A stretch of DNA of 64,000 nt from Planctomycetota bacterium (GCA_965223545.1 OZ245006.1:1376001-1440000); one strand, 5' to 3'; positions 18,748 through 35,748 are shown, counted from the first letter of the stretch. The notes: a model not told the origin generated them from the letters alone. A program made the numbers and translations.

Positions 18748-21628
18748 TGCGCGCGCCGTTGGAGGCGATGAAGCCCAGCGGGTTGGCAGCGTTGGCAATC
18801 CCCCACTGCACGAACAACGCGCCGCCCACCAACGACGGATTGTTCGGCACCGGAGACGGCAGACTGGCCTTGCCGTTCGCGTCGGTGAGCGCCGCCAACG
18901 TCGCCAGCGGCAAGGTCGTCGCCACGCAACCCGGCGCGCCCAAGACGGCCAGCGGCAAGTTGGCGTGGGTGCCACCGACCATCCAAAACGCCGGCGCAAC
19001 CGGCGGTGCCGTGCGCAACGTCGTGTCGAACACCTGACCGATGGCGGGAGTTCCGGTGGTACCGATCCGCGGCAGGGAGCCGGCCACCGAAGCACACGCC
19101 GGACCGAGCAGATGCACCATCCCGGTGTCGGCTCCGCGCTGCGTCAAGTACACGTGCGCGAGCCCTTCCTGGGTCGCAAACGGCTCGAAGTCACTCGACA
19201 CCAGCACGTCGGACAAGCCGTCACCGTTCAGGTCACCCAGGCCCACGCAGCCGCGCCGCTGCTCCTGCGCGGCTGACCCGTCGAAGGTCTGCAGCACGCG
19301 GCCGTCGTAGCCGGAAAACAGGGTGACGCGGCCGGCGAGGAAAACTCCACTGGCGAAGTACTGCGGGGAGCCGACCATGAAGTCGTCGAAGCCGTCGCCG
19401 TTCACATCGCCGGCTCCGGCGACCCGGTTGCCGAACAGCTCACTCGCTTGGCTGCCGGCGAGCTCGTACAGCAGGCCACCCGTCGCACCCGAGAACACCC
19501 GGACCATTCCAGCATCGACCAAACCGAGCGGGTCGGCCTGGTAGGCACCGACGATGATGTCGTTGGTCCCATCGCCGTTGACGTCACCGGCCACCGCGAG
19601 CGATTCGCCGAACAGGTCGTCGCTCAGTGTCGGCAGAGACCAGGTGTAGATCGGGGTCCAGGTCGTCGTGTCGTAGACCTCGACCTTGCCGCTGTTGCTC
19701 GGCACCGCCCCGGACGGCGAGCCGATCGCCAGCTCGGAGATGCCATCTCCATTGAGATCACCGGTAGCGACGGCCGACCAACCGAACCACTGGAACGGCA
19801 CCGTGCCGCCGAGGGTGCGCAGCTCGGTCAGCGTCGCGCCCGAGTACACCCGCAGCGCGCCGGCCTCGCCGTTGACGATGCCCAAACCGATGAAGAAATC
19901 GGGGACGGAGTCGCCGTTGATGTCGCCGAGGCCACCGACCGAGCTCCCCATGTGGGCACGGAACTGGTTGGAAGTGAACACACCCAGGCTCTGCGCGTCC
20001 GCGCCCGAGAACAGCTCGGCCCGCCCGCTGTCCTGCACGCCCGACTCGTCCCAGTGCCACGACCCGATCAGGAGGTCGCCGACGCCATCGCCGGTGATGT
20101 CACCGATGTCGGCGATCCGATTGCCGAACCAAGTGTCGGCCTGTGCCGGTCCGCGGATGGTGTGGATCACCGTCTGCGTGGCACCCGAGTAGACCCGCAC
20201 GGTGCCCTGCTTGCCCGGGTCCTCGAACGGTGCGCCGATGGCGTAGTCCTTGACTCCATCGCCATCCAGATCGGAGAGCGACGCCAGGCCCAGGCCGAAG
20301 CGCGCCCCCGCCACGCTGGAGGTGAACGGCAAGCCCGCGGCCACTCCGTCCGCCGGCCGCTCGCGATAGACCGAGGCGGCGCCCGCGTCGGCGGCGGCGA
20401 CATCATCGCCGGGCGCACCGAACAACACGTCGGCGTAGCCGTCCAGGTCGCTGTCGCCGCCACTGGCGACCGCTGTCCCGGCGGCGTCGCCCGCCGCGGC
20501 ACCGAGGTCGACGCGCAGTGCAGCACCATCCGTGCCGCGCAGCGTCAGCACGGCACCGGCATCCACACCGGCGACGTCGTCGCCGGGTACGCCGACGACG
20601 ACGTCGGGTTCCGCATCCGCATCGTGTTTGCCGCCGGCAGAGACCGCGGTGCCAAGGGCGTCGCCAGCGGCGCGCCCCTCGCGAGTCCACAGCACGGTAC
20701 CGGTGGCGCCGGAGATAGCGACCACCGAGCCGGCGTCGAGCGCCTTCGTGTCGTCACCGGGGGCACCGACAACGCCGTCGGAAACGCCATCGCCATCCAG
20801 GTCACCCGCGCCAGCGACTGCCGTGCCGAGAGCGTCGCCACCCGCGAGCCCGTCGAACGACTGCAGCACCGCTCCCGTGGCCACCGACAGTGCGATCGCG
20901 CGGCCGGCGTCCACCGCTCCATTGTCAGCACCGGGAGCACCGACCCAGACATCGTCGAAGCAGTCGCCGTCGAGATCGCCCGCACCGGACACGCTCGCGC
21001 CGAACGCATCGCCATCCGCGGAGCCCAACAGCGTTCGCAGCACGGTGCCATCCGCTCCGGAGTAGACGCGCACTGCACCGCCGTCCGTCGCCGCCAGGTC
21101 CGACCCCGGTGCGCCGGCCGCGCAGTCGTCGTAGCCATCACCGTTGGCATCGCCGACGCCCGCCACGGCGGAACCCATTCCATCGCCGGCAGCGTCACCG
21201 TCGACGTGTTGCAGCACGGCACCCGTCGCGCCCGAATACACCGTGAAGCTCCCCGCAGCCGCGCCGGCAGTGGAGTCGCCGGGCGCGCCCACGATCACGT
21301 CCGGGGTGCCGTCGCCATCGACGTCACCGGCGGCCGCCACCGCGGCACCGTGGAGGTCACCGGCAGCAGCGCCGAGCGTCGTGCGCAACACGGACCCGGT
21401 CGCGCCGGAGTGCCAGCGCACCGCACCGGCGTCGACACCGTTGGTCGCCTCGAGTGGCGCACCGACCACGAAGTCGTCGGCAAAGTCCCCGTCGAGGTCA
21501 CCGACGAAGGCGACGGCGGAACCCGCGGCCTCGCCGCCGGCAACACCGCGGACGACGAGGGGGGACTGCGCGAGAACGGGGACGGAGAGACAGACGAAGA
21601 TGGAAAGGCAGGCGTGGGGGCGGCCCAT
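18728..21628 (-). CDS. Secreted FG-GAP/integrin-alpha repeat protein with C-terminal shared domain
   Basis: Signal peptide; many GDxxGDGxxDxxVGAP...AGxVxVYSG repeats, about two propellers' worth. Confidence 0.92.
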   Translation of the reverse strand: MGRPHACLSIFVCLSVPVLAQSPLVVRGVAGGEAAGSAVAFVGDLDGDFADDFVVGAPLEATNGVDAGAVRWHSGATGSVLRTTLGAAAGDLHGAAVAAAGDVDGDGTPDVIVGAPGDSTAGAAAGSFTVYSGATGAVLQHVDGDAAGDGMGSAVAGVGDANGDGYDDCAAGAPGSDLAATDGGAVRVYSGADGTVLRTLLGSADGDAFGASVSGAGDLDGDCFDDVWVGAPGADNGAVDAGRAIALSVATGAVLQSFDGLAGGDALGTAVAGAGDLDGDGVSDGVVGAPGDDTKALDAGSVVAISGATGTVLWTREGRAAGDALGTAVSAGGKHDADAEPDVVVGVPGDDVAGVDAGAVLTLRGTDGAALRVDLGAAAGDAAGTAVASGGDSDLDGYADVLFGAPGDDVAAADAGAASVYRERPADGVAAGLPFTSSVAGARFGLGLASLSDLDGDGVKDYAIGAPFEDPGKQGTVRVYSGATQTVIHTIRGPAQADTWFGNRIADIGDITGDGVGDLLIGSWHWDESGVQDSGRAELFSGADAQSLGVFTSNQFRAHMGSSVGGLGDINGDSVPDFFIGLGIVNGEAGALRVYSGATLTELRTLGGTVPFQWFGWSAVATGDLNGDGISELAIGSPSGAVPSNSGKVEVYDTTTWTPIYTWSLPTLSDDLFGESLAVAGDVNGDGTNDIIVGAYQADPLGLVDAGMVRVFSGATGGLLYELAGSQASELFGNRVAGAGDVNGDGFDDFMVGSPQYFASGVFLAGRVTLFSGYDGRVLQTFDGSAAQEQRRGCVGLGDLNGDGLSDVLVSSDFEPFATQEGLAHVYLTQRGADTGMVHLLGPACASVAGSLPRIGTTGTPAIGQVFDTTLRTAPPVAPAFWMVGGTHANLPLAVLGAPGCVATTLPLATLAALTDANGKASLPSPVPNNPSLVGGALFVQWGIANAANPLGFIASNGARITIGAQ

Positions 21629-21901
21629 TCAGGGTCTCCAAGACGTGATGTGGCTCTGGCAGGGGTGTCGGTGTGCTTCGCGAACGACTCACCGACTGCC
21701 TGGGAATCATAGATGCCCGCCGCGGTCGAGGGGATCCCTCCGGTGTGGTCTCGAGCGCGGACCGCCCCCCGGCACCACCGCGAACGACGGCGGTTCTCCC
21801 CATCCCATCGCCACCTGCGCACGCCGGCGCAGCAGGCACCCCCGGGAAGCCCCCACATCCGAGGCGGGAACCGACCGCGGCGACGGTGGCAGTCGGCCCC
21901 G

Positions 21902-21930
21902 TTGTCGAGTTGCCGAACCGGCCGTACAAT
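21902..21930 (+). promoter_or_regulatory. Putative sigma70-type promoter
   Basis: TTGTCG-N17-TACAAT upstream of 22091. Confidence 0.45.
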
Positions 21931-22090
21931 TGGAGTTTCGCGGCCAGTGCACTCAGGGGCGAGCCGCCCCACGATGCGGCCGCCCCCACACACCAACTCA
22001 GGCCGGGATGCCCTTGCGCGCAATTCGTCGCCGCGCGGCGGTCGCGTACGGGCCACAATTATGCACCGGGCCACAACCCCTCTTCGGGTC

Positions 22091-23212
22091 ATGAATCACC
22101 ATCTACGCCTCGCTCTCGCGACCGGATCGGCCATGCTCGCCGGCGGCTACCTCGCCGGTCATGGCAACTACGTCAAGGCCGTGTTCAACGTCCACGAGTC
22201 GCCCGGAGCAACGGCGCCGCGCTGGATCTCGCCGATGTCCAACGGCTCGACCCGCGGCTCCGAGACCACGCAGCAGACGACTCTCTACATGATGGACCCG
22301 CCGCTAAACCACACCGGTGAGCTCGACGCGCAGGGCTGGCGCATCGTCGCCCAGGACGAGGAGGGCTCGACCCTCGATGGCCAGTTCGAGATGCGCTACG
22401 TCAAGTACGCCAGCAACGGGATCGATCCCGACCCCACCGGGGTGCTGCACTCCTACCAGTTCTGGTTCTTCTTCGGCGGCGCGGCGGGCCAGCAGGCGAT
22501 GGAGTTCGAGATCACCTTCGGTGTGCCACTCACGATCAGAGAACCCACGCACGGCATCGCCGTGGTCCTGCCGGCCGCGCCGTCCTGGCCGAGCGACGGC
22601 ATCTCCGTGCATGGCCAGTTCAACATCCCCAACGACCCGCTGCGCCCGCGCGTGCCCGCGCCCTACGACCAGCAAGTGTGGGCGTTCGACGCACCACCGC
22701 CCTTCGGCACGCCGGTGCCCCTCGGCGGGCGCACTCTCGACACGCTGCAGTTCGGCACGTTGTGGGCGATCGATCCGGTGCTGCAAACCTACGTGCAGTC
22801 GAATGCGTATGGAACCACGCAGGATCTGTTCGGTCCCGAGAGCTTGCACCCCGATACCAGCCGCGGCGACAAGCTCGGCTTCTTCGTGCAGGCCAGCAAC
22901 GACGGCGTCAACGGCAACGCCTACGTTTTCGCTTCGCCTGGACTGCTGCCGACGCCCTTCAAGTTCGCTCCGGCGTCCGGCAACAACCCGTTCGTCCTGC
23001 TGGCGGTCGCCCCGCCGTTCCCGATCCTGCTGAACGCGGGCGCAATCAACCCGGCCAACAGCCAACTCAAGCTACCGCCGATCGACTTCAACCTGTTCCC
23101 GCCGTGCTGCCGCAACTTCTGGTTCCAGGCGCTGCTGCACTTTCCGTCGCCGGTCCCCTCCATTCCCGATCTGGTACAGCTGACCGACGCAACGGGCGTG
23201 CAGGGACTGTAG
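22091..23212 (+). CDS. Secreted hypothetical protein, tandem paralog 1
   Basis: Signal-like N-terminus; collinear similarity to the next gene. Confidence 0.8.
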   Translation: MNHHLRLALATGSAMLAGGYLAGHGNYVKAVFNVHESPGATAPRWISPMSNGSTRGSETTQQTTLYMMDPPLNHTGELDAQGWRIVAQDEEGSTLDGQFEMRYVKYASNGIDPDPTGVLHSYQFWFFFGGAAGQQAMEFEITFGVPLTIREPTHGIAVVLPAAPSWPSDGISVHGQFNIPNDPLRPRVPAPYDQQVWAFDAPPPFGTPVPLGGRTLDTLQFGTLWAIDPVLQTYVQSNAYGTTQDLFGPESLHPDTSRGDKLGFFVQASNDGVNGNAYVFASPGLLPTPFKFAPASGNNPFVLLAVAPPFPILLNAGAINPANSQLKLPPIDFNLFPPCCRNFWFQALLHFPSPVPSIPDLVQLTDATGVQGL

Positions 23213-23220
23213 GGGGTCGA

Positions 23221-24366
23221 GTGACGGCCAGGGTCCCCGCGCAACCCCGATTCCAACACCTGCGCCTCGCCCTCGCGACCGGCGCGGCCATGCTTGCCGG
23301 CGGCTACCTCGCGGGCCACGCCACCTACACCAAGCCGCTGTTCAACCTCTCTCCATCCCCCGGATTCGCCGCTCCGCGGTGGACCAGCGCGATGGTCAAT
23401 GGCACGACGCGCGGCTCCGCGACCGTGCAGCAGACGACGCTGTACATGATGGATCCGCCGCTCAATCACACCGGCATGCTGACCGCGCAGGGCTGGCGCA
23501 TCGTGGTGCAGGACGAGGATGCCTCGACCCTGGATGGCCGCTTCACGATGCACTACGTCAAGTACGCCAGTAACGGCGTGGATCCCGACCCCAGCGGAGT
23601 GCTGCACTCCTTCATGTTCTGGTTCTTCTTCGGTGGCGCGACAGGCCAGCAGGCGATGGAGTTCATCATCATCACCCTGGCACGGCAGCTGAGGGAGCCC
23701 AACCACGGCATCGCAGTGGAGCTGCGCGCCGCACCGTCGTGGCCCAACGATGGAATCTCGGTGCACGGGCAGTTCAATCTGCCCAACGATCCACTGCGCC
23801 CGCGAGTGCCAGCGCCGTACAATCAGCAGGTGTGGGCTTTCGACGCACCGCCGTCGAGCAGTACACCGGTGCCACTCGGCGGACGCGTGCTCGACACTCT
23901 GCTGTTTGCCACGGTTTGGACTGTTGATCCGGTCTTGCAGACCTACGTGCAGTCGGCCGCCTACGGGACGACGATGGACCTGTTCGGCCCTGAGAGCATG
24001 CACCCGGACGCCAACCGGGGTGACAAACTCGGCTTCTTCGTGCAGTCCACCAACAACGGGCTGAACGGCAATGCCTACGTCTTCGCGGCACCGAGGCTCT
24101 CGCCCACGCCCTTGCGGCTCTCCTCGGCGTCGGGCAGCAACCCGTTCGTCCTGCTCGACGTCGCCCCTCCGTTTCCGGTGTGCCTGAGCGCGGGGCCGAT
24201 CAACCCGGCCAACGGCCAGCTCAAGCTACCGGCGATCGACTTCAACCTGTTCCCGCCGTGCTGCCGCAACTTCTGGTTCCAGGCACTGCTGCACTTCCAA
24301 TCACCGTTCCCCTCCTTCCCCGATCCGGTGGAGCTGACGGACGCCACCGGCGTGCGGGGACTGTAG
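23221..24366 (+). CDS. Secreted hypothetical protein, tandem paralog 2
   Basis: Paralog of 22091-23212; GTG start inferred. Confidence 0.8.
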   Translation: MTARVPAQPRFQHLRLALATGAAMLAGGYLAGHATYTKPLFNLSPSPGFAAPRWTSAMVNGTTRGSATVQQTTLYMMDPPLNHTGMLTAQGWRIVVQDEDASTLDGRFTMHYVKYASNGVDPDPSGVLHSFMFWFFFGGATGQQAMEFIIITLARQLREPNHGIAVELRAAPSWPNDGISVHGQFNLPNDPLRPRVPAPYNQQVWAFDAPPSSSTPVPLGGRVLDTLLFATVWTVDPVLQTYVQSAAYGTTMDLFGPESMHPDANRGDKLGFFVQSTNNGLNGNAYVFAAPRLSPTPLRLSSASGSNPFVLLDVAPPFPVCLSAGPINPANGQLKLPAIDFNLFPPCCRNFWFQALLHFQSPFPSFPDPVELTDATGVRGL

Positions 24367-24876
24367 TCAGTCGCGCACCGGCAACGCGCGCGTCGGCCGA
24401 CCGACCACCCACCCCGGCTCCATCGTCACCGCGCCGGTCTGTCCGTCGCGATGCTCCATCATCTGCACGCTCGACACCTGGCCATCGGCGTGGATGAACC
24501 ACTCGATCCCGCTGGTCGGTTCGCGATGGACGCGGATCACCGGCGCGTAACCGTCGCCGATCAAACCGGGAAACGGCGGTGGATTGCGCACCCCGTTCGG
24601 CGCCGGTAGCCAGGTGCCGTCGGGGAACTGCACCGCCCCCGAGGGCGGCACCCCGAGGTTGCCGATCGCGCCGGAGCGGACCTCGGGCGGAGGACCCTGG
24701 AGGACCCCACTGTCGCGCAGCACCGCGTCGACCTGGCTCTCCGGCAACTGCTCGACCCGCGCGCCGGCGGGCGGCGCCTGCGCTTCAGCTCCCCGCCATG
24801 CCCCGACCGCAAAATACGTCAGCGCGCCGGCGGCCAGCGCGATCAATACCACCCGTGGCGTCGACAGCTCAGCCAT
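24367..24876 (-). CDS. Hypothetical membrane-anchored protein
   Basis: N-terminal TM helix; fills the gap between convergent and divergent neighbours. Confidence 0.65.
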   Translation of the reverse strand: MAELSTPRVVLIALAAGALTYFAVGAWRGAEAQAPPAGARVEQLPESQVDAVLRDSGVLQGPPPEVRSGAIGNLGVPPSGAVQFPDGTWLPAPNGVRNPPPFPGLIGDGYAPVIRVHREPTSGIEWFIHADGQVSSVQMMEHRDGQTGAVTMEPGWVVGRPTRALPVRD

Positions 24877-25041
24877 CCACAAGTTATACCACGCGCGACC
24901 CTCCGCCCCGCTCGCCGAACGCCCTCAACTCCATCTGCAAAACGCGTTTACGACAAGCCACCGGACCGCGCTTGCCGACGAAGCATGGTAGCCTGGACGG
25001 GCTGCCCGCCGGCGCACTGCTTTCTGCAACGGACCTCCCGC

Positions 25042-25920
25042 ATGGCACCACGCTCGAGTTGGAAGGGCTTCCTCAAGCTCAGTCTCGTCTCGGTTCCGGT
25101 GAAGGCCTACACCGCGAACGCCACCACCGCCGAGATTCGCCTCAACCAGCTGCACGCGGACTGCAACAACCGCATCCGCTACAAGAAGACCTGCCCCGAG
25201 CACGGCGAGGTCGACAACGACGCCATCGTCAGCGGCTATGAGCTCGGCAAGGGACAGTACGTCGTCATCGACGTCGAAGAGATCCAGAAGCTGCGCACCG
25301 AGTCGGACAAGTCCGTCAACATCAAGGGCTTCATTGCGCCGGACGCGCTCGACCCGCGCTACCACGCCGGCCGCACCTACTACCTGCTGCCCGATGGCGC
25401 GGTCGGCCAGAAGCCGTACGCACTACTGCGGCAGTCGATGGTGGACAACGGCGTGCACGCGCTCGCCCAGGTCGTGATCGCCGGCCGTGAGCAGCTCGTG
25501 CTGCTGCGGCCGATGGACGAGCTGCTGGCGATGACCGTGCTCAGCCACGAGGCCAAGGTGAAGGCGCCGGGATCGTTCTACGACGAGCTGAATCAACAAG
25601 AGCTGGGTTCCGACGAGCTGGCGCTGACCAAGACGCTGATCGACGCATCGCGCCTGGCAGACTTCGACTACGCCGCCTACAAGGACGAGTACGTCGAGAA
25701 GCTCACGCAGCTGATCCAGGCCAAGGTCGACGGCCAGGAGCTCGTCGCGGTGCCCGACCACGAGGAGCCGAAGATCCTCAATTTGATGGAGGCGCTCAAG
25801 CAGAGCGTCGCCGCAGCACAAGCCAGCGCGCCGGCCGAGCCCGCCACCAGCAAGGGCAAGAAGAAGATGGCGCCGAGCAAGGCGCGCAAACGCGCGGCCA
25901 AGAGCAAGAAGACCGGCTGA
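25042..25920 (+). CDS. ku: NHEJ DNA end-binding protein Ku
   Basis: WKGFLKLSLVSVPVKAY, RIRYKKTC, GYELGKGQYV, LNLMEALKQS and basic C-terminal tail. Confidence 0.95.
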   Translation: MAPRSSWKGFLKLSLVSVPVKAYTANATTAEIRLNQLHADCNNRIRYKKTCPEHGEVDNDAIVSGYELGKGQYVVIDVEEIQKLRTESDKSVNIKGFIAPDALDPRYHAGRTYYLLPDGAVGQKPYALLRQSMVDNGVHALAQVVIAGREQLVLLRPMDELLAMTVLSHEAKVKAPGSFYDELNQQELGSDELALTKTLIDASRLADFDYAAYKDEYVEKLTQLIQAKVDGQELVAVPDHEEPKILNLMEALKQSVAAAQASAPAEPATSKGKKKMAPSKARKRAAKSKKTG

Positions 25921-25940
25921 AGCAACGCGCGCCAAAGCCC

Positions 25941-26867
25941 ATGCCGCCCTCCGCGCAGGCTCCCGAACCCGCGCTGCCCGAGTTCATTCCGCCGATGCTG
26001 GCCGGCGTCGCCGAGCCGTTCGATGCCGACACCCACCTGTTCGAGGTCAAGTGGGACGGCATGCGCACGCTGGCCTACCGCGACCGCGGCGGGGTGCGGC
26101 TGGTGAACCGTCACCACCACGACGTCACCGGCCACTTCCCCGAACTCACCGACCTGCAGGCGCTGCCGGTCGGCGTCGTGCTCGACGGCGAGCTGGTGGT
26201 GACGATCGACGGCCGCCCCGACTTCCAGCGGGTCATGGGCCGCCGGCACGCGCGGTCGGCGGCGACCGTGCGCCGCCTCGCCGCCGAGCAGCCGGCGACG
26301 TTCGTCGCCTTCGATCTGCTCTACGCCGAGTTCTGCTGCGTGCAGGACGAGCCGCTCGAGGGGCGCCGCGACCGCCTGGCCGCGGCGCTGAAGGATCGGG
26401 TCACGCCGCACTTGGCCCTGTCCGAGGGCATCGTCGGCCAGGGCCGCATGCTGTTCGAGCACGCCTGCGCGCAGCAGCTGGAGGGCGTCGTCGCCAAGAA
26501 GCTGGGTAGCCCCTACCTGCCGGGACGACGCTCGGAAGCCTGGCTCAAGATCAAGCGGCAACAGACCGCACTGTGCGCGATCCTCGGCTTCCTGCCGGAC
26601 GGTGAACGGGACTTCAAGAGCCTCGCGGTCGCCATCGAGGACGGCGGCGCCCTTCGCTACGTCGGCCAAGTCGGCTCGGGCTTCGACGCCAAACAGCGCG
26701 ACGCGCTCAACGCCGCCCTGCGCGCCCGCGTGGTCGACGCGCCACTGGTGCCCTGCCCCATCACCGCGACCTGGGTCGAATCCGGCCTGTACTGCCGCGT
26801 CACCTACCTCGAGATGACCTCGCACGGGCACCTCCGAGCCCCGGTGTTCGCCGGCATGATCGACTGA
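25941..26867 (+). CDS. Stand-alone ATP-dependent DNA ligase (LigD-ligase/LigC type)
   Basis: Motif I EVKWDGMR, III LDGELV, IIIa FVAFDLL, IV EGVVAK, V WLKIK; OB domain with GQVGSGF and LRAPVF. Confidence 0.93.
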   Translation: MPPSAQAPEPALPEFIPPMLAGVAEPFDADTHLFEVKWDGMRTLAYRDRGGVRLVNRHHHDVTGHFPELTDLQALPVGVVLDGELVVTIDGRPDFQRVMGRRHARSAATVRRLAAEQPATFVAFDLLYAEFCCVQDEPLEGRRDRLAAALKDRVTPHLALSEGIVGQGRMLFEHACAQQLEGVVAKKLGSPYLPGRRSEAWLKIKRQQTALCAILGFLPDGERDFKSLAVAIEDGGALRYVGQVGSGFDAKQRDALNAALRARVVDAPLVPCPITATWVESGLYCRVTYLEMTSHGHLRAPVFAGMID

Positions 26868-26888
26868 CGCCCCCGAGGCGAGCCGAAC

Positions 26889-27494
26889 CTACGCGTCTTC
26901 GCGGCCGACGCCGTCGTACGCCATGACGCGCTCCTCCCAGTCGCGCAACGCCTCGGCAGCTGCCGGCAACTCGAACAAGGCGGCGTTGCGCACGCGCCGC
27001 ATCACCGGCGCCGCGGTCACATCGGCACCGGTCATCGCCTCGCCCACCAGCCATTGCCGACCGCGCAGCGCGGCCGCCAGACGCTCGACCGCCGCGTCGA
27101 ACGCGCGCTGGCTGCGGGCGACGACGGCCTCATCGACGTGGCCCGCGGTGCGCCGGGTATGCACCACATCCATCATCGGGCGGGCCAGCTCGGCGCGCGC
27201 GAACAGCTCCCAGTCCTCCACCTGCCACGCCTCCGCCACCGTGCCGGCGAACAGCGGCGGAGTCGCGCGGAAGTTCGCATCCAGATAGCGCAGGATCGCC
27301 GCCGAGTCGAACAACACGACCTCGCCGTGGACCAGCACCGGCGTCAGGCTCTGGCCGGAGATCCGCTGCAACTCGGCGCGTTGGTCCAAATCGACCTCGA
27401 CGAAACGGTAATGGATGCCCTTGTAGCCCAGCGCGACCCGCACCTTCATGTTGTTGGACGTGTCGAACCCATAGAGTGTGATCGAGGCCGCCAT
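26889..27494 (-). CDS. Glutathione S-transferase family protein
   Basis: KVRVALGYKGI, TPVL, LFDSAAILRYL, WLVGEAMTGADV. Confidence 0.9.
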   Translation of the reverse strand: MAASITLYGFDTSNNMKVRVALGYKGIHYRFVEVDLDQRAELQRISGQSLTPVLVHGEVVLFDSAAILRYLDANFRATPPLFAGTVAEAWQVEDWELFARAELARPMMDVVHTRRTAGHVDEAVVARSQRAFDAAVERLAAALRGRQWLVGEAMTGADVTAAPVMRRVRNAALFELPAAAEALRDWEERVMAYDGVGREDA

Positions 27495-27585
27495 CCTTCG
27501 CAGGCTACCACCGCGCGCCGGCGAGCGCCCGCTCTCGCGTTGCCGCGGCGGCACCGCCTATGCTCGTGTCGTTCTCAGAAGCGCG

Positions 27586-28821
27586 ATGAGCTCCGAACCG
27601 CCACCCCCACCACCGCCCTCCGGCCAGCCCGACGACGCCCCCGCGACAACCGGCCGCTCGCGCAGCGCGCTCGGCGGTCTCGAGGTCGTGGTCACCGGCC
27701 GGCTGCAGAGCATGACCAAGGAAGAGGCGCTCGCCGCGCTGCGCAAGGCCGGCGCGCGATGCCGCGACCTGCCGACGGAGACCACCGCGCTCCTGGTGTT
27801 GGGCGATGGCGGGTGCCCGCTGCGCGCCGACGGCCGCCCCACGCGCGCACTGCAACGCGCCGAGCAGCTGCGCGCCAATGGCGCCCAGCTACGCACGATC
27901 GACGAAGCCGAGCTGCTGGCCCAGCTCGACCCGGAACACGCCGCGCGCCTGGCCCCACTGCACACGACAGCGCGCCTGGCGCGCATGCTCGACGTCCCGG
28001 GGGCGCGCGTGCGCGAGTGGACCAGGGCCGGCCTGCTGCGGGCGACGCACTCGATCCGCAAGCTGCACTACTTCGACTTTCGCGAGGTCGCCCGCGCCCG
28101 CCAGCTCCTCGAGCTGACCAGCGCCGGAGTCACCGTGGCCCGCATCAAGAAGAGCCTGCGCCAGCTGCGCACCTGGCTGCCCGGCGCCGATCGATCGCTG
28201 CATCAGCTGGAGGCCCTGTCCCGTCGCTCGGTCGTGGTGCGGCTCGCCGACGGCCGCGCGGTCGAGCCGAGCGGACAGCTGCGGCTCGAGTTCGCCCAAC
28301 CGCCCGCACCGGCGCCATCGGCTGCGGCGCGGCCGCTGCCGCAGGTGTCGCCCGCCGACGCCGACGGCTGGTGCGCGGTGGCCGAGCGCGCCGAGGCCGA
28401 CCAGCGGTTCGAAGATGCCGCCGAGGCCTACCACCAGGCATTGATGGCGGCCGGCCCCGACGCCGAGCTCGCCTTCAATCTTGGCAATGTGCTGCACGCG
28501 CTCGACCGCACCGGCGAAGCCCTGCAGCGCTACTTGCAAGCCGTCGAGCTGGAGCCGGCCTACGCGGAGGCGTGGAACAACGCCGGCAACGCGATGGCCG
28601 AGCTGGCGCGCCACGAACGCGCGACGCAGGCCTACCAGCGCGCTCTACAGCACGCTCCCGACTACGCCGACGTGCACTACAACCTTGCGGAGTCGCTGCT
28701 CGCGCTGGGCGACACCACCGGCGCCTGCACTCACTGGCGCCAGTACCTGCACGGCGAACAAGACGGTCCCTGGGCCACCCACGCCCGACAACAGCTCGCC
28801 CGACACGAGCCTGCCGATTGA
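27586..28821 (+). CDS. BRCT - MerR-type HTH - TPR protein
   Basis: BRCT-like VVVTGRLQSMTKEEA...GA...LLVLG; MerR-like LARMLDV...VREWTRAGLL...YFDFREV; TPRs AFNLGNVL, AWNNAGNA, VHYNLAE. Confidence 0.85.
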   Translation: MSSEPPPPPPPSGQPDDAPATTGRSRSALGGLEVVVTGRLQSMTKEEALAALRKAGARCRDLPTETTALLVLGDGGCPLRADGRPTRALQRAEQLRANGAQLRTIDEAELLAQLDPEHAARLAPLHTTARLARMLDVPGARVREWTRAGLLRATHSIRKLHYFDFREVARARQLLELTSAGVTVARIKKSLRQLRTWLPGADRSLHQLEALSRRSVVVRLADGRAVEPSGQLRLEFAQPPAPAPSAAARPLPQVSPADADGWCAVAERAEADQRFEDAAEAYHQALMAAGPDAELAFNLGNVLHALDRTGEALQRYLQAVELEPAYAEAWNNAGNAMAELARHERATQAYQRALQHAPDYADVHYNLAESLLALGDTTGACTHWRQYLHGEQDGPWATHARQQLARHEPAD

Positions 28822-28822
28822 A

Positions 28823-28919
28823 GTGAACGTACGGAGCCAGGCTCCCGTTCATCACCTCGCGGTCCGGCCGTCGGCCGGACCGCGAGGTGATGAACGGGAG
28901 CCTGGCTCCGTACGTTCAC
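28823..28919. repeat. Perfect inverted repeat, 48-bp arms with 1-nt centre (REPIN-like)
   Basis: 28823-28870 is the exact reverse complement of 28872-28919; lies between convergent genes. Confidence 0.97.
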
Positions 28920-28926
28920 CGTTCCT

Positions 28927-29475
28927 TCAATCGTCGTTGGCGTCTGAGTTGGCGGCCAGCTTGCGGTAGAGCCACGCGCGCGCGAAGGCCCACTCGCGGC
29001 GCACGGTCCGCTCCGAAAGGTCCATGGCCTTGGCGACCTCGGTCTCCTCCAAGCCGGCGAGAAAGCGCAGCCGCACGACCTCCGCCGCGCGCGGACTCAC
29101 CACCGCGAGCCCGCGGATGGCCTCGTCGATCGCCAGCACCTGATCGAGATTGGCAGTGCTGGCGACGTCGACCACGTCGAGGGAAAGCCGCGACAGGTCG
29201 CCGCCCCGCTTCTTGGCATTCTGCTTGCGCGCGTGGTCGATGAGGATCCGGCGCATCGACTCGGCGGCGGCGAGGTAGAACCGGCGCGGGCTCTCCCGCG
29301 CTTCGGTGACCTGGTCGCGCAGCGCGATCCACGCCTCGTTGACCAGGGCGGTCGCCTGCAGGGTGTGGCCCTTGCGTTCGGCGGCCATCTGCCGGTCGGC
29401 GATGCGCCGCAGCTGGGCGTGCACGCTGGCCACCAAGTCGACGCTGGGTTGATCGGTCGGTTGTCGGTCGCTCAT
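28927..29475 (-). CDS. ECF-type sigma factor (TIGR02999-like)
   Basis: HTLQATALVNEAW, MRRILIDHAR, KRGG, VVRLRFLAGL, SERTVRREWAFARAWL. Confidence 0.92.
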   Translation of the reverse strand: MSDRQPTDQPSVDLVASVHAQLRRIADRQMAAERKGHTLQATALVNEAWIALRDQVTEARESPRRFYLAAAESMRRILIDHARKQNAKKRGGDLSRLSLDVVDVASTANLDQVLAIDEAIRGLAVVSPRAAEVVRLRFLAGLEETEVAKAMDLSERTVRREWAFARAWLYRKLAANSDANDD

Positions 29476-29652
29476 CGTGCCGCTGCGCATCGGTGGGTTT
29501 CGCCTCCGCCGACCAATTCGCCGGCTTTGGACAAGAGCGCGAGCAACGCGCCGCCACCGGCCATGATTCTCGCCAAAACCACCGGCTCCGCACGCCCCGA
29601 CTGTCTACATTTGCGGCGCAACGCGAATGCAGCCCGACGCCCGGCAAGCCCT

Positions 29653-31722
29653 CTACCCGCCGCGCAACACGCGCTGCAATGCCTCGATCGCCGGCATGAG
29701 ATCCTGCCGATCCTCGAGCAACGGACGAAAGAGATCGCCGTGTTGCGCGACGCGGTCTGGCACCGTCAACAGAGTCCAGTCCGACAGTGCGAGATCGGAC
29801 GACAGCTCGTCCCAGTGCAGAGGGGTCGACACGGTCCCACCCCGCACCGGCCGCACGGTGTACGGCGGCACGATGGTCTGGCCGCGGCGGTTCTGCATGA
29901 AGTCGAGGTACACCCGACGCCCCCGGGCAGCCATGCTGCGCTCGACCGTGGCGATGTCCTTGTGCTCGGACGCGACCACCCGACAGACGCCCTCACAGAA
30001 CATGCGCGCCTGGTCATAGCTGTAGCCATCGACCAGCGGCACGTACACGTGCAACCCGGTACTGCCCGACGTCTTGACCAACGGCCGCAGCCCGATCCCG
30101 CGCAGCAGCTTGCCCGTCTCGCGCGCCAGCTTGACGACGTCCTGGAACGGGGCGGCCTTGGGATCGAAGTCGATCACCGCGTAGTCCGGCGACTCCAGCG
30201 CGCTGCGCCGCGACATCCACGGGTGCAGGTCGATGCTGCCGAGATTGATCAGGTACAGCAGCGTATCGCGGTCGTTGCAGACCATGTGCCGCACTGGTTC
30301 CTCCTTGTGGCGGCGCTGGATCCACTCGGTGGCGACCCAATCCGGACAGCCGTCGGGGGCGTTCTGCTGGTAGAAGTTCTTGCCCTCGATGCCGTCGGGC
30401 CAGCGATAGAGGTGGATGGGCCGCTCGTGCAGGTACGGCAGCACGACGTCGGCAACCTCCTCGTAGTACGCCAAGAGATCGCCCTTGGTGTAGCCCTCGG
30501 CGGGCCAGTAGACCTTGTCGAGGTTGGACAGCTCGACCCGCGCCGGCCGTCGCCGTGCCCCGGCGGTCTGCCGCCGCAGGGCCTGCTGCACGTCCTCGGC
30601 GGGCGCCGCGCTCGCGCTGGACAGGTCGAACCTACGCCAGTCTTGCGACGATCCGCCGCTGTACGCGCTACCGCTGCGCTTGGCGACGACGCCGGGCAAG
30701 CCCGCCGCTTTGACCGATTGCGCCAGCTCGACGCCGCGGCCGGTGACGTGGTCTACGTACAACAGGCTCTTCTGTCGCCCACCGAGGACGGCGACCAGCG
30801 CGGCCTTGCGATCCAACAGCGGCAGCGGTCGCAGATCCCAGCGATCGTAGTGCAGCAGGTCGAACGCGTAGAACGCAACGGTCGCCTCTGCGCCGCCCGC
30901 CAACACGCGCTCGAGCAACGCGCCATCGGGACGCCCGGTCGCGTCCATCGCCACCAGCACGCCATCGATGTACGCATCATCGGCGCGCACCTTGCCGAGC
31001 TCGTCGACCAGCGACGCGGCCGCCTCGGCGACCCCCCTACCCGCGGCGCCGGCAAACCCGACCTGACCGTCTCGTACGCGGGCCATCAGGCGGCGACCGG
31101 CAAACAGCATCTCGAACACCCAACCCGGGTCGGAGAACGGCTCCACCGTCGGCCCGGCGGTCATCGGCCTCGGGGCGCGCGCCGGCATCTCTCGAGTGTG
31201 CGCGGCGTCGAGGTTCATCGACAACGGCAGCACGCCCTCGGCACGAGCGTGGCGGTCGCGCGCCTTGAACAACAGCCAATTCTCCTTGGTGCGCACGCAG
31301 TGCCACTCGCCGCGCAGCCGCTTGCCGTAGCAGACGATCTCGAACTTGCCGGTCTCCACCTGTGCCGCCCAATCACCTTCGGTCAGCATCCGGTAGTGAC
31401 CGTGATCCCAGATGGTCATCGTCCCCGCGCCGTACTCGCCCTTGGGGATCATGCCCTCGAAGGTCTCGTACTCGATCGGGTGATCCTCGGTGCGCACCGC
31501 GAGGTGCTTGTCCGCGGGGTCGTAGGAGAAGCCCTTCGGCACCGCCCACGACTTCAGCACGCCATCCATCTCCAACCGTAGGTCGTAGTGCAGCCGGCGC
31601 GCCTCGTGCCGGTGGATGACGAACACGGCCTCGCCGGGGCGCGGCCGCGCCGGGGCGGGCGCCGGCTCCGGAGTTCGGCCGAAGTCGCGCTTGGCTGCGT
31701 ACTCGTCGAGGCCTCCGGACAT
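29653..31722 (-). CDS. ligD: LigD-like protein: phosphoesterase - degenerate ligase - polymerase
   Basis: PE: HEARRLHYDLRLE, SWAVPKG. POL: LSNLDKVYWP, IDFDP, KTSGSTGLHVYVP, YLDFMQN. Central ligase-like region lacks KxDG. Confidence 0.92.
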   Translation of the reverse strand: MSGGLDEYAAKRDFGRTPEPAPAPARPRPGEAVFVIHRHEARRLHYDLRLEMDGVLKSWAVPKGFSYDPADKHLAVRTEDHPIEYETFEGMIPKGEYGAGTMTIWDHGHYRMLTEGDWAAQVETGKFEIVCYGKRLRGEWHCVRTKENWLLFKARDRHARAEGVLPLSMNLDAAHTREMPARAPRPMTAGPTVEPFSDPGWVFEMLFAGRRLMARVRDGQVGFAGAAGRGVAEAAASLVDELGKVRADDAYIDGVLVAMDATGRPDGALLERVLAGGAEATVAFYAFDLLHYDRWDLRPLPLLDRKAALVAVLGGRQKSLLYVDHVTGRGVELAQSVKAAGLPGVVAKRSGSAYSGGSSQDWRRFDLSSASAAPAEDVQQALRRQTAGARRRPARVELSNLDKVYWPAEGYTKGDLLAYYEEVADVVLPYLHERPIHLYRWPDGIEGKNFYQQNAPDGCPDWVATEWIQRRHKEEPVRHMVCNDRDTLLYLINLGSIDLHPWMSRRSALESPDYAVIDFDPKAAPFQDVVKLARETGKLLRGIGLRPLVKTSGSTGLHVYVPLVDGYSYDQARMFCEGVCRVVASEHKDIATVERSMAARGRRVYLDFMQNRRGQTIVPPYTVRPVRGGTVSTPLHWDELSSDLALSDWTLLTVPDRVAQHGDLFRPLLEDRQDLMPAIEALQRVLRGG

Positions 31723-31816
31723 CGCATCCACGATAGGCGCGGCAACGGGGGGCAGCGAGCCCGGACATTGTCCCGACTGGCTTCCCGTCGCAACGCCGGC
31801 ACCGTACCAGGTCGTC

Positions 31817-32755
31817 ATGAGACGATCGCCGCCTCCGTACACGCCCACCCTCTTGGTCTCACTGCTGCTCACCGCCATCGGGGCCGCGCAGACCACCACC
31901 CGCCCCGCGCCGGTGACCTCGGTCGCGGGCGGCGCCGCGCAGCCGCCGCAGGGCCCGGTGTGGCGCAGCCCGGGCCTCGACGCGGACCTGCTGCGGATCG
32001 AGGCCGGCGCGCGCTCCGCGCCGCGCACCGCCCAGGGCGACACGCTGCTGCACGTTCTCGAAGGAGGCGGCACGGTCGCGATCGACGGCGGCAGCCACGC
32101 AGTCGAAGCCGGCAGCCTGGTGCGCATCGGCGCCGGGGCGCGCTGGTCCCTCGACGCAGAGACCGCGTTGCGCTGCTTGAGCGTGCGCTCGAACGCCGTC
32201 GCCCACTCGGGCGGGATGGCCGCCGGGCCCCGGCCCACCGAGCAGACGCCGTATCCCGAGACCAGCCCGCGCGGCTCGGCGCGCATCTTCTACTGGTACG
32301 GACCCGGGTCCGCGGGCCAGGTCGACCTGGACTACGGCCGGCCGCGCTGGCAACCGAAGTTCGAGCAGTTCGTCGGCGGCAAGGGTGCCGCGCGCTGGCG
32401 GCTGGGCCAGAACTTCTGGACGCGACTCGACACCAACATCGGGCTGCGATTCGGCGCGGTCGAGCTCGCACCCGGGACCCACTATCTGGTGTTGGCGCGC
32501 GCCGCGGACGGCGAGCTCGCCCTGGTGGCGCTCGATCCCGCCGCGGTCCGCGCAGAGCGACTCGATGCATGGCACGCGCCGAAGACGCAAGGCGGCCAAC
32601 GCATTCCGCTCGACCACTCCCGCACAGAGGACCGCGCGGAGTTCCTGCTCTGCGCGCTCGCGGTGGACCGCGAGCGCCGCGATCGCGCGCGCCTCGACAT
32701 CTTCTTCGGTCCACATCACCTGCAGACCGACTTCGACATGCTCGCGCAGCGCTGA
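31817..32755 (+). CDS. Secreted cupin + DUF2911-like protein
   Basis: Signal peptide; cupin-like LHVLEGGGTVAIDG; SPRGSA, LDYGRP, WRLGQN, LAPGTHYL resemble DUF2911. Confidence 0.7.
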   Translation: MRRSPPPYTPTLLVSLLLTAIGAAQTTTRPAPVTSVAGGAAQPPQGPVWRSPGLDADLLRIEAGARSAPRTAQGDTLLHVLEGGGTVAIDGGSHAVEAGSLVRIGAGARWSLDAETALRCLSVRSNAVAHSGGMAAGPRPTEQTPYPETSPRGSARIFYWYGPGSAGQVDLDYGRPRWQPKFEQFVGGKGAARWRLGQNFWTRLDTNIGLRFGAVELAPGTHYLVLARAADGELALVALDPAAVRAERLDAWHAPKTQGGQRIPLDHSRTEDRAEFLLCALAVDRERRDRARLDIFFGPHHLQTDFDMLAQR

Positions 32756-32776
32756 CGCTGCCGGCAGAATGCGGCG

Positions 32777-33406
32777 ATGCCCGCCACCCTCGAAACCCTG
32801 CGCCGAGCCCGCTGCTCGGCGATCCTGCGCACTCAACACGCCGACGCCGTCGCGCCGGCAATGCAGGCCGCCGTCGACGGCGGATTCAGGGTGGTGGAGT
32901 TCACCCTCAACACACCGAACGCGCTGCAGCACATCGAGACGTTTGCCGGCGACGAGCACCTGCTGGTCGGCGCCGGCACCGTGCTGAGCACCGACGATGC
33001 CCGCGCCGCGCGGGACGCCGGCGCGCGCTTCTTGGTCTCGCCGGTGGTCGACGAGGCGGTGATCGACTACGCGGTGCAGCACGACCTGGTCGCGATTCCC
33101 GGCTGCGCCACGCCCACCGAGATGCTCCGCGCCCACCGCTCCGGCGCGCAGATCATCAAGCTGTTCCCGTCGCCGGCGGACGGCCCCGCGACGGTGCAGT
33201 CGATCCTCGGGCCCATGCCGTTCTTGCGCATCTTCCCCACCAGCGGGGTCACCCTCGAGAACGTCACCGCCTACTTCGCCGCCGGCGCGTTCGGCGTGGG
33301 CTTCGTCACCTCACTGTTCGCCGCCGGGGACGTCGCGGCGGGCCGGTTCGACGCCATCCGCGAACGCGCGGCGGCGATGACCGCCGCCGTCGCCGGCGCC
33401 CCCTGA
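32777..33406 (+). CDS. eda: KDPG/KHG aldolase
   Basis: VEFTL, VGAGTVL, FLVSP, PGCATPTE, KLFP, PTSGV. Confidence 0.9.
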   Translation: MPATLETLRRARCSAILRTQHADAVAPAMQAAVDGGFRVVEFTLNTPNALQHIETFAGDEHLLVGAGTVLSTDDARAARDAGARFLVSPVVDEAVIDYAVQHDLVAIPGCATPTEMLRAHRSGAQIIKLFPSPADGPATVQSILGPMPFLRIFPTSGVTLENVTAYFAAGAFGVGFVTSLFAAGDVAAGRFDAIRERAAAMTAAVAGAP

Positions 33407-33414
33407 CCGCAGCC

Positions 33415-34746
33415 TCACTTCGGCGCCGGAGGCGGCTCGCGCTGCTGCAGCGCGCTCCACAGCCGGCGCTCCGCGCGCCGGAACAGCAGCGCGACCCGGT
33501 CGGCGTCGGTGACGCCGTCCGCCGCGGGACCAGCCTCGCCCCGGTGCGCGCGTTCATACAGATCCTGCAGCTGCGCGGCAGCATCCGCGGCGGACTGAAG
33601 CCGCGGCGGCTGCGGCACCGCCAGCGCCGACAACCGCGCGCCGTCGTCCAACAACTCGGCCAAGGCGCGCGCGTCGCCCGGCGCGAACCACGCGCAACTG
33701 CCCTCGGCACCGTGCTCTCGATAGGCGGGCAGGTCGGAAGCCAAAACCGGCAGCCCCAACAGCAACGCCTCGTCGAGGATCAGTCCGTAGGACTCGTGAC
33801 AGCACGACGCCAGCACCGCGTAATCGGCATCGGATCCAGCCAGATCCTCCGTGGTGAACCCACCGCGAAACTCGACCCGCAATCCCGCGGCCGCGGCGTG
33901 CAGCTGCTCGCGATAGGCCGCGTCGTGGGCCTCGCCCCAGACCTCGAGGCTCCACTCGTCTGCTGCGCGCCGCATCGCCGCCAGCACCACTTCCAGCCCC
34001 TTCTCGGGGTAGAGCGCACCCCACACCAAGAGCCGCCGCCCGCGCGGCGCCGGCTGTGGGGGGCGACGCGGTGGCGACCGCAGCAGCGGCGGCGGCGTCA
34101 CCGCGACCTCCCCGAGCGCCCCCTCGGAGAGCTCCGCGAGGCCGCGCGCATGCGCGCCACTCGGCGCGCACAGCAGGTGCGCCGCCGCCAACTCCGCCGC
34201 GAAGTCACGGCGGTGGAAGGCGAACGCCTCGGCGCGCTCCGCGGCCCCGACGTAGGCCGGCACCTCGGGCGGCTCGGCCCGCGTGGCACCGATGCGCCGC
34301 ACCGGCGTCGCCAGCACCGAGTAGTAGTCGTGCAGCGTCACCGCGGTGAGCGCCCCGGCCCGACGCGCGATCCGCGCCAGGTCCGAGGTCAACCGCACCC
34401 AATGGTGCACGTGCACGACATCGGGCCGCTCGGCCGCCAGCAGCTCGGCGAACCGCGCCGACACCGCCGGCGCGTGCGCCTTGATCCAGCCATCGTGGTA
34501 CAGGTCGTCGCGCGCCAGCCGACAGACGGACAGCCCGTCGACGACGTCGCGCGTCAAGGCGACGGCCTCCGAAACCGCGAGCACGCCGGCCACCACGACG
34601 ACTTCATGGCCGGCGGCCAAGAAGGCGCGCGCCAGGGCCTCGACGGTGTTCTCCGTGCCGCCGCGCAGCTCGGGGGGGAAGCCGTGCACGCAGAGCAGGA
34701 TCTTCATCGCGCGCGGCAGCTTAGGCGCAGGCGCATCCCGGGTCAC
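33415..34746 (-). CDS. GT4 (GT-B fold) glycosyltransferase
   Basis: HGFPPELRGGTE, PDVVHVHH, ESYGLILDEA. Confidence 0.9.
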   Translation of the reverse strand: MTRDAPAPKLPRAMKILLCVHGFPPELRGGTENTVEALARAFLAAGHEVVVVAGVLAVSEAVALTRDVVDGLSVCRLARDDLYHDGWIKAHAPAVSARFAELLAAERPDVVHVHHWVRLTSDLARIARRAGALTAVTLHDYYSVLATPVRRIGATRAEPPEVPAYVGAAERAEAFAFHRRDFAAELAAAHLLCAPSGAHARGLAELSEGALGEVAVTPPPLLRSPPRRPPQPAPRGRRLLVWGALYPEKGLEVVLAAMRRAADEWSLEVWGEAHDAAYREQLHAAAAGLRVEFRGGFTTEDLAGSDADYAVLASCCHESYGLILDEALLLGLPVLASDLPAYREHGAEGSCAWFAPGDARALAELLDDGARLSALAVPQPPRLQSAADAAAQLQDLYERAHRGEAGPAADGVTDADRVALLFRRAERRLWSALQQREPPPAPK

Positions 34747-35666
34747 TCGCTTCGCACGCCTCGCCCGAGGTAACGCTCGACGTCACGGGCCGTGACCCGC
34801 TGCCCGCGAATGCCGGCGAGGATGCCGCGCGCCTTCGCCATCATCGCCGCCCAACCGGTACCCCCCACCCAGGTCAACGGCCATAGAACGACCTCGAACA
34901 CTGCAAAGGCCAACCAATCGCGCGGCCGGCCGTGGCGCCGCAAGTAGTGCACCGAGTTGACTCCCGACATGTACTTGCGCATCGGCGACCGTCCGCCGCC
35001 CGACGAAGCGCTGGATGCGTGCACGACACGCACCCATGGCAACCACAAGACCGTCCATCCGCGATCGCGCAACCGTTGCCCGAGATCGACGTCCTCCCAG
35101 TACATGAAGTAGCTCTCGTCGAGGTCGCCGACGTCGGCCAGCGCGCTCAGCCGATACAGCGCACACGCGCCCGGCATGAAGTCCACCGCCTCTGGCCCGG
35201 CGTCGAGCGGCGCGGGCTCCTCGCCGAGTCCGCGCAAGCGCAGCATGTTGGGGTGGAACGCCAGCGCACCGCCCTGACACCAGGCGCGCCCGTCGGTGCG
35301 CAGCATGGTCGGGCCGACGCAAGCGATCCCGGGATCGTTGCGCAGCACCCGCACCATCGGCGCCAAGAAACCGGGCTGCAGTCGCAGGTCGTTGTTCAGC
35401 AGCAGCACGAACTCGGCGTCGCGCTCGCGCGCCCAGGCCAGGCCCCGGTTGATCGCGGCGCAGTAGCCCACGTTGGACTCCAAGGACAACAGCGTGAAGT
35501 CACCGGGCCCAGCAGCCAGGCGAGCGCTCGATCCATCGCCGGAACCGTTGTCGATCACCAAGAGACTCAGTGCGGCCTCGCCACAGTCGGCGATGTCGGT
35601 CATGCACTGCAACGTCAACTCCGGCTGGCGCCAGTTGAGCAAGACCCCGACCACGGTGGGCGGCAT
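34743..35666 (-). CDS. GT2 glycosyltransferase
   Basis: LNW, IDNGSGD, LLNND, YFMYWEDVD. Confidence 0.92.
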   Translation of the reverse strand: MPPTVVGVLLNWRQPELTLQCMTDIADCGEAALSLLVIDNGSGDGSSARLAAGPGDFTLLSLESNVGYCAAINRGLAWARERDAEFVLLLNNDLRLQPGFLAPMVRVLRNDPGIACVGPTMLRTDGRAWCQGGALAFHPNMLRLRGLGEEPAPLDAGPEAVDFMPGACALYRLSALADVGDLDESYFMYWEDVDLGQRLRDRGWTVLWLPWVRVVHASSASSGGGRSPMRKYMSGVNSVHYLRRHGRPRDWLAFAVFEVVLWPLTWVGGTGWAAMMAKARGILAGIRGQRVTARDVERYLGRGVRSE

Positions 35667-35748
35667 CCATCGGATCGTCGCCGACCCGGTCGCCCTCCGC
35701 GAGCACTTCTCCGCGCGCCGAGCTGGCGGTCGGTGGCCCCGACCCCGC

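Follow-up and report, generated by a model that had tools for sequence, protein, structure and literature searches.

A conserved four-gene module for NHEJ (non-homologous end joining), which in bacteria is classically ascribed to Ku and LigD, lies at positions 25042-31722 of a 64,000-nucleotide stretch of planctomycete DNA (the window; Planctomycetota bacterium, GCA_965223545.1 OZ245006.1:1376001-1440000). The module consists of ku, a stand-alone ATP-dependent ligase gene, a (BRCT)-MerR-TPR accessory gene and a gene for a LigD with PE, catalytically dead LIG and POL domains; the window has a G+C content of 70% and the host genome is 8.1 Mb in size. The preferred interpretation, judged probable with some room for doubt, is an end-joining module in which sealing has been outsourced to the separate ligase and the product of the (BRCT)-MerR-TPR gene serves as an adaptor bound to DNA. 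Of this, the directly observed parts are the anatomy of the module, the catalytic residues lost from LigD, the reciprocal occurrence of dead LigD and separate ligase, and the accessory gene's linkage to ku. An earlier note on this DNA, made from the sequence alone, had listed six genes here, among them an intact ligase and a ligase-dead LigD, and had read them as a multi-component NHEJ variant. All six open reading frames (ORFs) were confirmed in place by ORF calls, profile scans and motifs, in the order ku(+), ligase(+), glutathione S-transferase (GST)(-), BRCT-MerR-TPR(+), ECF sigma(-), LigD(-), and a four-gene core is kept in relatives as a conserved variant. The system is limited to four genes because the GST and ECF sigma genes are not kept at related loci. 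Its parts are as follows.

25042-25920, plus strand: Ku, 292 amino acids (aa), with a core, a minimal C-terminal helix and a basic tail (TIGR02772, PF02735)
25864-25878, plus strand: conserved Ku-tail motif KMAPS, residues 275-279, a candidate docking site
25941-26867, plus strand: stand-alone ATP-dependent DNA ligase, 308 aa, with NTase (PF01068) and OB (PF04679) domains and catalytic K37 intact
27586-28821, plus strand: Ku-linked accessory gene, encoding a 411-aa protein with BRCT, MerR-like winged helix-turn-helix (HTH), small beta region and TPR
28276-28293, plus strand: clamp-binding-like hexapeptide QLRLEF, residues 231-236 of the accessory protein, followed by a variable linker
29653-31722, minus strand: LigD-like protein, 689 aa, with PE domain, catalytically degenerate ligase NTase domain and POL domain, and no OB domain
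30625-31167, minus strand: dead ligase NTase domain, residues 186-366 of LigD, with L206 (31105-31107) at the position of the motif I lysine

Ku is a bacterial Ku homologue by TIGR02772 (240 bits, cut-off 150). The ligase encoded beside it has complete motifs I, III, IIIa, IV and V (EVKWDGMR with K37, LDGE, FDLL, EGVVAK and WLKIK), and the motif I lysine is kept in 30/30 complete stand-alone orthologues. Its closest PDB match is the LigD ligase domain (6nhx/1vs0), and it scores under the cut-offs of both TIGR02779 (217.8 vs 227.75) and the LigC-type model NF006078 (153 vs 296). LigD passes the PE model TIGR02777 and the POL model TIGR02778, and the PE motifs HRH, HYDLR and EDH and the POL motifs DFD and KTSG..GxH, whose residues presumably have their catalytic roles here, are all present; among 30 LigD orthologues five PE/POL patterns match in 27-29/30 and the narrow DxD pattern in 21/30. 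The LIG part, which aligns with Mycobacterium tuberculosis LigD (1vs0, E 1e-12), carries leucine (L206) for lysine and alanine (A208) for aspartate in motif I, valine (V255) for glutamate in motif III and proline (P343) for glutamate in motif IV; both motif V lysines are lost, and POL begins after 29 residues with no OB domain. Judged by the KxDG lysine, motifs III-V and the OB domain, the LigD polypeptide has no active ligase domain (the roles of the catalytic lysine and OB domain are set out in passages of PMC8656161). The dead codons are not an assembly error, since public contigs of runs X1 and X4, from two samples of one study, are identical to the window across them; X1 may be its source.

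Loss of the LIG active site and presence of a separate ligase go together. The motif I lysine is absent in 30/30 dead LigD orthologues and in one further genome (G318), giving 31, and the OB domain is absent in the 30; in every one of these 31 genomes a stand-alone ligase sits next to ku or ligD, the G026 copy being cut by a contig end. Reciprocally, LigD is intact for nine ku-MerR-TPR operons that lack a stand-alone ligase; it lies within the locus in seven cases and on a different contig in two. No LigD was found in G100. In a quick, unrooted ligase tree, with two partial rows (L025, L051) left out, the dead domains group in one clade and the stand-alone ligases in a second, both supported at SH-aLRT 100. 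As LigD's ligase domain is without catalytic residues and OB domain, sealing is assigned to the stand-alone ligase, and the earlier note's proposal that sealing is outsourced to the ku-linked enzyme is very likely correct. It falls short of proof because the genome has one further ATP-dependent ligase and a LigA-like BRCT gene, a point that counts against outsourcing together with the presence in G003 of both a dead and a second, intact LigD.

A chance cluster, or a decaying LigD whose ligase domain is being lost, could accommodate the GST gene, ECF gene and repeat element as chance insertions here, as well as decayed loci in two other genomes (G020 and G013), and is given next to no probability. 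The dead domain, however, is in frame in 31 genomes from several families and forms one clade that is always paired with a stand-alone ligase. Across 20 LigD proteins its mean pairwise identity is 48.5%, against 66.7% for PE, 64.4% for POL and 21-33% for the flanking linkers, which argues that the domain is maintained; a decaying LigD was rejected as contradicted by these conservation data. It is moderately likely that the dead NTase domain is retained as a Ku- or DNA-docking surface, a role made plausible by passages of PMC13717202 according to which M. tuberculosis Ku contacts both the POL and the ligase domains of LigD. Since the dead domain still passes PF01068 (34.4 bits, cut-off 26.2), a survey based on domains only would likely count such a LigD as conventional. 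The LigD of locus L173 fails the motif I pattern. Separately, a plasmid LigD (L181:8684-10579) whose annotation reads polymerase/phosphoesterase modules matches the ligase profile, with its lysine in place, and the POL profile but not PE.

Linkage of the accessory gene to ku was the check that the earlier note had proposed, with absence of linkage as the outcome that would speak against it, and linkage was found in a family sample of 60 relatives (MerR-TPR homologue threshold E < 1e-40), a phylum sample of 300 genomes drawn across the phylum and a wide (GTDB) set, the best 80 of at least 571 relatives. A homologue is present in 28/60 family genomes, and all 18 of those that also have ku show the order ku-ligase-MerR-TPR on one strand; LigD converges within less than 6 kb in 13 of the 18, is elsewhere in 3 and on another contig in 2. 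In the phylum sample the gene occurs in 42 genomes, Ku in 42 and both in 24, so that Ku is found in 24/42 gene-positive vs 18/258 gene-negative genomes; the two genes are on one strand within 4 kb in 22/24 genomes with both. Within the wide set ku lies upstream on the same strand at 73/80 loci across seven phyla (Acidobacteriota, Gemmatimonadota, Myxococcota, Planctomycetota, Pseudomonadota, Binatota and Eiseniibacteriota), the seven misses comprising four loci with fewer than 300 bases upstream and three real ones, and 44 of the 45 wide loci having a ligase domain match the motif I pattern. Furthermore, Burkholderiales plasmids gave 41 matching records, with ku directly upstream in 6/6 inspected and a 4-nt overlap in three, and cultured, non-pathogenic Cupriavidus strains have ligD-ku-accessory gene units.

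In 104/115 linked loci no more than 150 nt separate the accessory gene from the ku or ligase gene upstream of it, and no MerR-TPR gene was found at 20 control ku loci, some of them ended by contig ends. Linked Ku proteins form two separate well-supported clades that mirror two accessory-gene clades (FastTree trees, keeping roughly one third or one quarter of the wide-clade rows); no order of events is claimed, because no tree was rooted. A DUF72 gene (PF01904) was also observed within 4.5 kb of the MerR-TPR gene at 30 loci of both clades (e.g. L109:2118-2831), among them those of the ku-less genomes G021 and G257; the three DUF72 genes of the present genome lie elsewhere.

In the accessory protein, MerR_1 (PF13411, 35.4 bits vs a cut-off of 21.6) identifies a winged HTH and TPR repeats are present; the protein reaches no NCBIfam regulator family cut-off. 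Its BRCT domain has no Pfam match and is supported by NF004844 (E 1e-8), by the ligase BRCT of PDB 1l7b (E 1e-4) and by an AlphaFold2 (AF2) model in which residues 31-120 have pLDDT 81-97 in blocks. The whole model has a mean pLDDT of 87 and pTM of 0.48, with confident BRCT, winged-HTH and TPR domains and loose linkers. In the VIA comparison, which barely covered model residues past 86, the HTH matched TipAL, TnrA, GlnR, CbpM and RacA with Z 9.0-9.9, TipAL (2vz4) giving Z 9.9 and a root-mean-square deviation of 1.9 over 69 residues; the HTH-plus-beta module may also resemble the MerR-family protein McdR. The long MerR dimerisation helix and effector domain are absent from the predicted models, which have two short helices, the beta region and a linker before the TPR, and the TPR domain retains invariant Asn and Trp residues. 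An initial homologue search of the protein returned only 4 proteins, and a protein-representative profile search and full-length Foldseek were dominated by generic TPR proteins; the best 120 matches of a search with the HTH plus beta region were either MerR-TPR proteins or shorter entries with MerR only. Searches of PDB and Pfam with the middle region gave no specific match.

The conserved core of the family is the MerR-like HTH, the beta region with its motif, and the TPR. BRCT is present in 19/35 ku-linked planctomycete genes, 27/30 copies without ku beside them and none of the 80 wide loci. The earlier note had drawn a loose analogy with the BRCT scaffolds of eukaryotic repair, and this has weakened because the accessory BRCT is single, ligase-like and often absent from ku-linked genes; it is not the tandem phosphopeptide-binding pair of eukaryotic scaffolds.

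In a 72-row alignment Q231, the first residue of QLRLEF, is the sole invariant residue of the HTH and middle region. The motif Q-x-x-[FLIM]-x-F has Q in 72/72 rows and the final F in 67/72, the linker after it spans 7-107 residues in planctomycetes, and a relaxed clamp-like pattern is matched by 150/151 family members; the background in ORFs of the same genome is 0.06 per 411 aa. QLRLEF fits both Q-phi-x-[L/M]-x-[F/L] and the high-affinity consensus QLxLxF given in passages of PMC11139829, making it a candidate clamp-binding motif. Of the hexamers listed in passages of bioRxiv 2026.05.27.728225 (Pol IV QLVLGL, Hda QLSLPL and E. coli Pol III QVELEF) it resembles the last, and it is like them in Q1, aliphatic residue 2, L4, F6 and the variable linker that follows. 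Unlike these, position 4 is F in most family members and position 2 is often R in ku-less copies; according to the same preprint the penalty for a Phe at position 4 of a pentapeptide is only 1.5-3-fold.

In the proposed mechanism the broken ends are likely held by Ku, then trimmed and filled by LigD through its PE and POL domains, and sealed by the stand-alone ligase. The accessory protein would grip DNA through its winged HTH, aided by BRCT where present, dock on the beta sliding clamp through QLxLxF and use its TPR groove to bind a peptide, for which the conserved Ku-tail motif is one candidate. On clamp-loaded DNA it would then either license end joining or restrain it. This assignment of three contacts is tentative, and the clamp and the Ku tail are leads read from sequence. 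Doubtful as a whole is the broadest version, in which the MerR-TPR adaptor would be a third core NHEJ factor in at least seven phyla, tying Ku to the sliding clamp and timing joining at forks, and part of the Planctomycetota would in addition have a pseudo-ligase LigD scaffold and a separate sealing ligase.

The possible contact with Ku points to its tail. K[MLVA][AS][PKA]S is found in the tails of 28/29 split-ligase Ku and 4/6 other linked planctomycete Ku and in 0/28 unlinked Ku, with shuffled tails giving 1.4, and the tail outside the motif is variable. A different tail motif occurs in 49/78 wide-clade Ku and is absent from the same 28 unlinked proteins. Both patterns were derived from linked sets and linked Ku are kin; the motifs may be clade signatures. 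A second ku of this genome (6248193-6248987; L060:6194-6988, minus strand), 264 aa long, ends after the minimal C-terminal helix and has no basic tail, KMAPS motif or NHEJ neighbours (see also L058); it is sister to another second ku, likewise tailless, in genome G009. Divergent ku paralogue pairs, close together and without a MerR-TPR gene, were seen in several genomes of the same phylum (L198, L199, L201, L202 and L203) and possibly encode heterodimeric Ku.

Several findings weigh against the adaptor interpretation. Kin genomes are not independent, and the linkage counts are patterns and not p-values. Only 40/151 family motifs satisfy the strict clamp consensus, and Ku itself has a QLVLL match inside its Pfam core domain. 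QLRLEF may be structural, because AF2 renders part of it as a short strand and there is a weak alignment to Rv2018 (5af3; 126 columns, E 0.009). The closest structural matches of the HTH, namely TnrA, GlnR and TipAL, are sequence-specific regulators, and in the window the antisense GST gene sits between ligase and accessory gene, interrupting the module. Neither Ku nor a LigD POL domain was found in 18/42 gene-positive phylum-sample genomes, many of them 99-100% complete, and no ku was found in 10/28 gene-positive family genomes; the ku-less label changes 9 times on the accessory-gene tree, with many origins. A predicted complex of a Ku dimer with accessory residues 120-411 (score 0.10, mark 0.32) was used neither for nor against binding.

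The main rival accepts that the ligase split is real and takes the MerR-TPR protein for a regulator that controls transcription of repair genes, ku among them, in a sequence-specific way, senses a protein or DNA-damage signal through its TPR (and BRCT) and is never at the break. This is considered unlikely, if still a serious competitor. It accounts well for a MerR-type winged HTH nearest to TnrA, GlnR and TipAL, a regulator with other targets would outlast loss of ku, and there is a precedent in the stand-alone MerR-family protein McdR, which controls mycobacterial repair genes according to passages of PMC9040748. The DNA upstream of ku also bears on it, including one element in the window:

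24986-24994, plus strand: candidate extended -10 element TGnTAnnnT upstream of ku, a pattern match with a putative function

The ku promoters resemble extended -10 types, with TGnTAnnnT no more than 80 nt from the start of 14/35 planctomycete-clade ku genes vs 0.47 expected from shuffles and 0/23 unlinked ku genes; a sigma-70 scan gave 0 promoters. An imperfect palindrome, TGCACA-N6-TGTGCA with at most 3 mismatches, lies upstream of ku at 21/76 wide-clade loci vs 3.6 expected, which favours a regulator. Its carriers, mostly Thermoanaerobaculia with a divergent MGMT-like gene, are however all kin, and the palindrome could act for that gene instead; and no dyad is common to the 35 planctomycete ku upstream regions, where the top count was 4 against a mean shuffle maximum of 5.0. 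Also against a regulator, the model has no long MerR dimerisation helix, the gene closes the unit and is in many cases closely coupled with ku, and a near-invariant clamp-like motif would be unexpected in a plain regulator. MGMT-like genes (PF01035) diverge from ku in 14 loci (e.g. L132:5645-6043 and related Thermoanaerobaculia loci), with the palindrome in the shared upstream region, where it may be an unknown repair operator.

Because the gene persists in 18 genomes in which neither Ku nor LigD was found, the accessory protein is not only a Ku scaffold. It might instead maintain DNA in some other setting, such as stalled forks or damaged bases, and merely be co-expressed with ku in a repair island. 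Besides the intact copies in those 18 genomes, which include a ku-less clade of 16 on the accessory tree, this explanation draws on G241, which has one ku-linked and one unlinked copy, on the intact gene beside ligase remnants in G020 and G013, and on the nearby DUF72 (30 loci) and MGMT-like (14 loci) genes. It is nevertheless improbable: direct adjacency to ku is kept across two deep Ku clades and seven phyla and outlasted insertion of the ligase gene between ku and the accessory gene, and linked Ku have tail motifs that 0/28 unlinked Ku share. Under the adaptor interpretation a clamp- or DNA-directed role would also account for survival of the gene without Ku and LigD. The two decayed NHEJ loci are L025 (G020:C8), with a frameshifted ligase and a PE fragment beside an intact BRCT-MerR-TPR gene, and L027 (G013:C233), with just a ligase C-terminal remnant beside one. 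G129 (L097, G129:C4) has two tandem BRCT-MerR-TPR genes without ku. The ku-less copies of G126 and G324 were left out of the fetched loci.

Three further elements within the locus lie outside the system.

26889-27494, minus strand: glutathione S-transferase ORF with Pfam GST_N/GST_C, an antisense insertion
28823-28919, no strand assigned: perfect 48-bp inverted repeat with a 1-nt loop, between convergent genes
28927-29490 (alternative start 29475), minus strand: ECF sigma factor that passes TIGR02999, a passenger

The earlier note had included GST and ECF sigma in the system, which was not borne out: GST is absent from 28/28 family loci and 40/40 further phylum loci, an ECF homologue is found at 1 of these 68, on the far side of ku, and both were rejected as members because their position is not conserved. 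Relatives of the inverted repeat occur in about 50 300-bp bins of the genome, indicating a dispersed, REP- or MITE-like family. Divergent from ku is a 171-aa ORF (24367-24882, minus strand) with a hydrophobic stretch at the N terminus, matches in neither Pfam nor NCBIfam and no counterpart seen beside related loci. Further upstream are two similar tandem genes (21713-23212 and ~23221-24366, plus strand) that share long near-identical stretches and have no Pfam match, and a gene for a 966-aa protein (18728-21628, minus strand) with many repeats, noted by eye, which we take to be FG-GAP-like. Rfam gave no match within window positions 20000-36000, and phage records none to P0001.

Compared with canonical Ku and PE-LIG-POL LigD of the Pseudomonas/Agrobacterium type (TIGR02772, NF004628, TIGR02776), the module is alike in Ku, PE, POL, domain order and clustering. 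It differs in a LIG domain that lacks K and D of motif I, the glutamates of motifs III and IV, the lysines of motif V and the whole OB domain, and in the separate ligase and MerR-TPR genes within the ku unit. Split and non-conventional NHEJ is known from passages on the stand-alone LigC, LigD, PolK and PolR of Streptomyces (PMC5124664) and on the categories of Sharda et al. (bioRxiv 869602). Such systems, including the mycobacterial LigC back-up, share a ligase of about 300 aa (NTase and OB) as its own polypeptide, whereas LigD here retains a conserved pseudo-ligase domain rather than losing it, and the passages searched show no TPR partner. The accessory BRCT resembles single ligase-type BRCTs (LigA C-terminus, PDB 1l7b and 2owo; Pol III epsilon-like NF004844) in sequence, predicted fold, TG motif and next helix, but is N-terminal to a MerR HTH, has an insert with a P-x-x-x-D-G pattern and is optional in its family. 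The HTH shares its fold with minimal MerR-like winged-helix proteins (TnrA, GlnR, the TipAL N-domain, RacA, CbpM and Rv2018), and is followed by a small beta region, clamp-like motif and TPR instead of a coiled coil and effector domain. In the searched portions of open-licence PMC papers and bioRxiv, a scope that leaves aside subscription papers and survey supplementary tables, neither a Ku-linked MerR-TPR protein nor a LigD with a conserved dead ligase is described; the term TPR has 0 matches in the parts seen of PMC11936186, bioRxiv 869602, PMC13717202 and PMC5124664, and a search of the Myxococcus NHEJ literature gave nothing relevant.

The accessory gene behind ku is a concrete candidate for a missing NHEJ component or a dedicated regulator, and bears on the choice that cells make between end joining and recombination and on how this choice is related to replication. 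Ligase-dead LigD is a natural separation-of-function variant that allows non-catalytic roles of the LIG domain to be tested, and it shows how domain-only surveys miscount such proteins as conventional. If the proposed roles are true, the module would represent a four-protein division of labour that resembles eukaryotic NHEJ more than it does the textbook system of two proteins.

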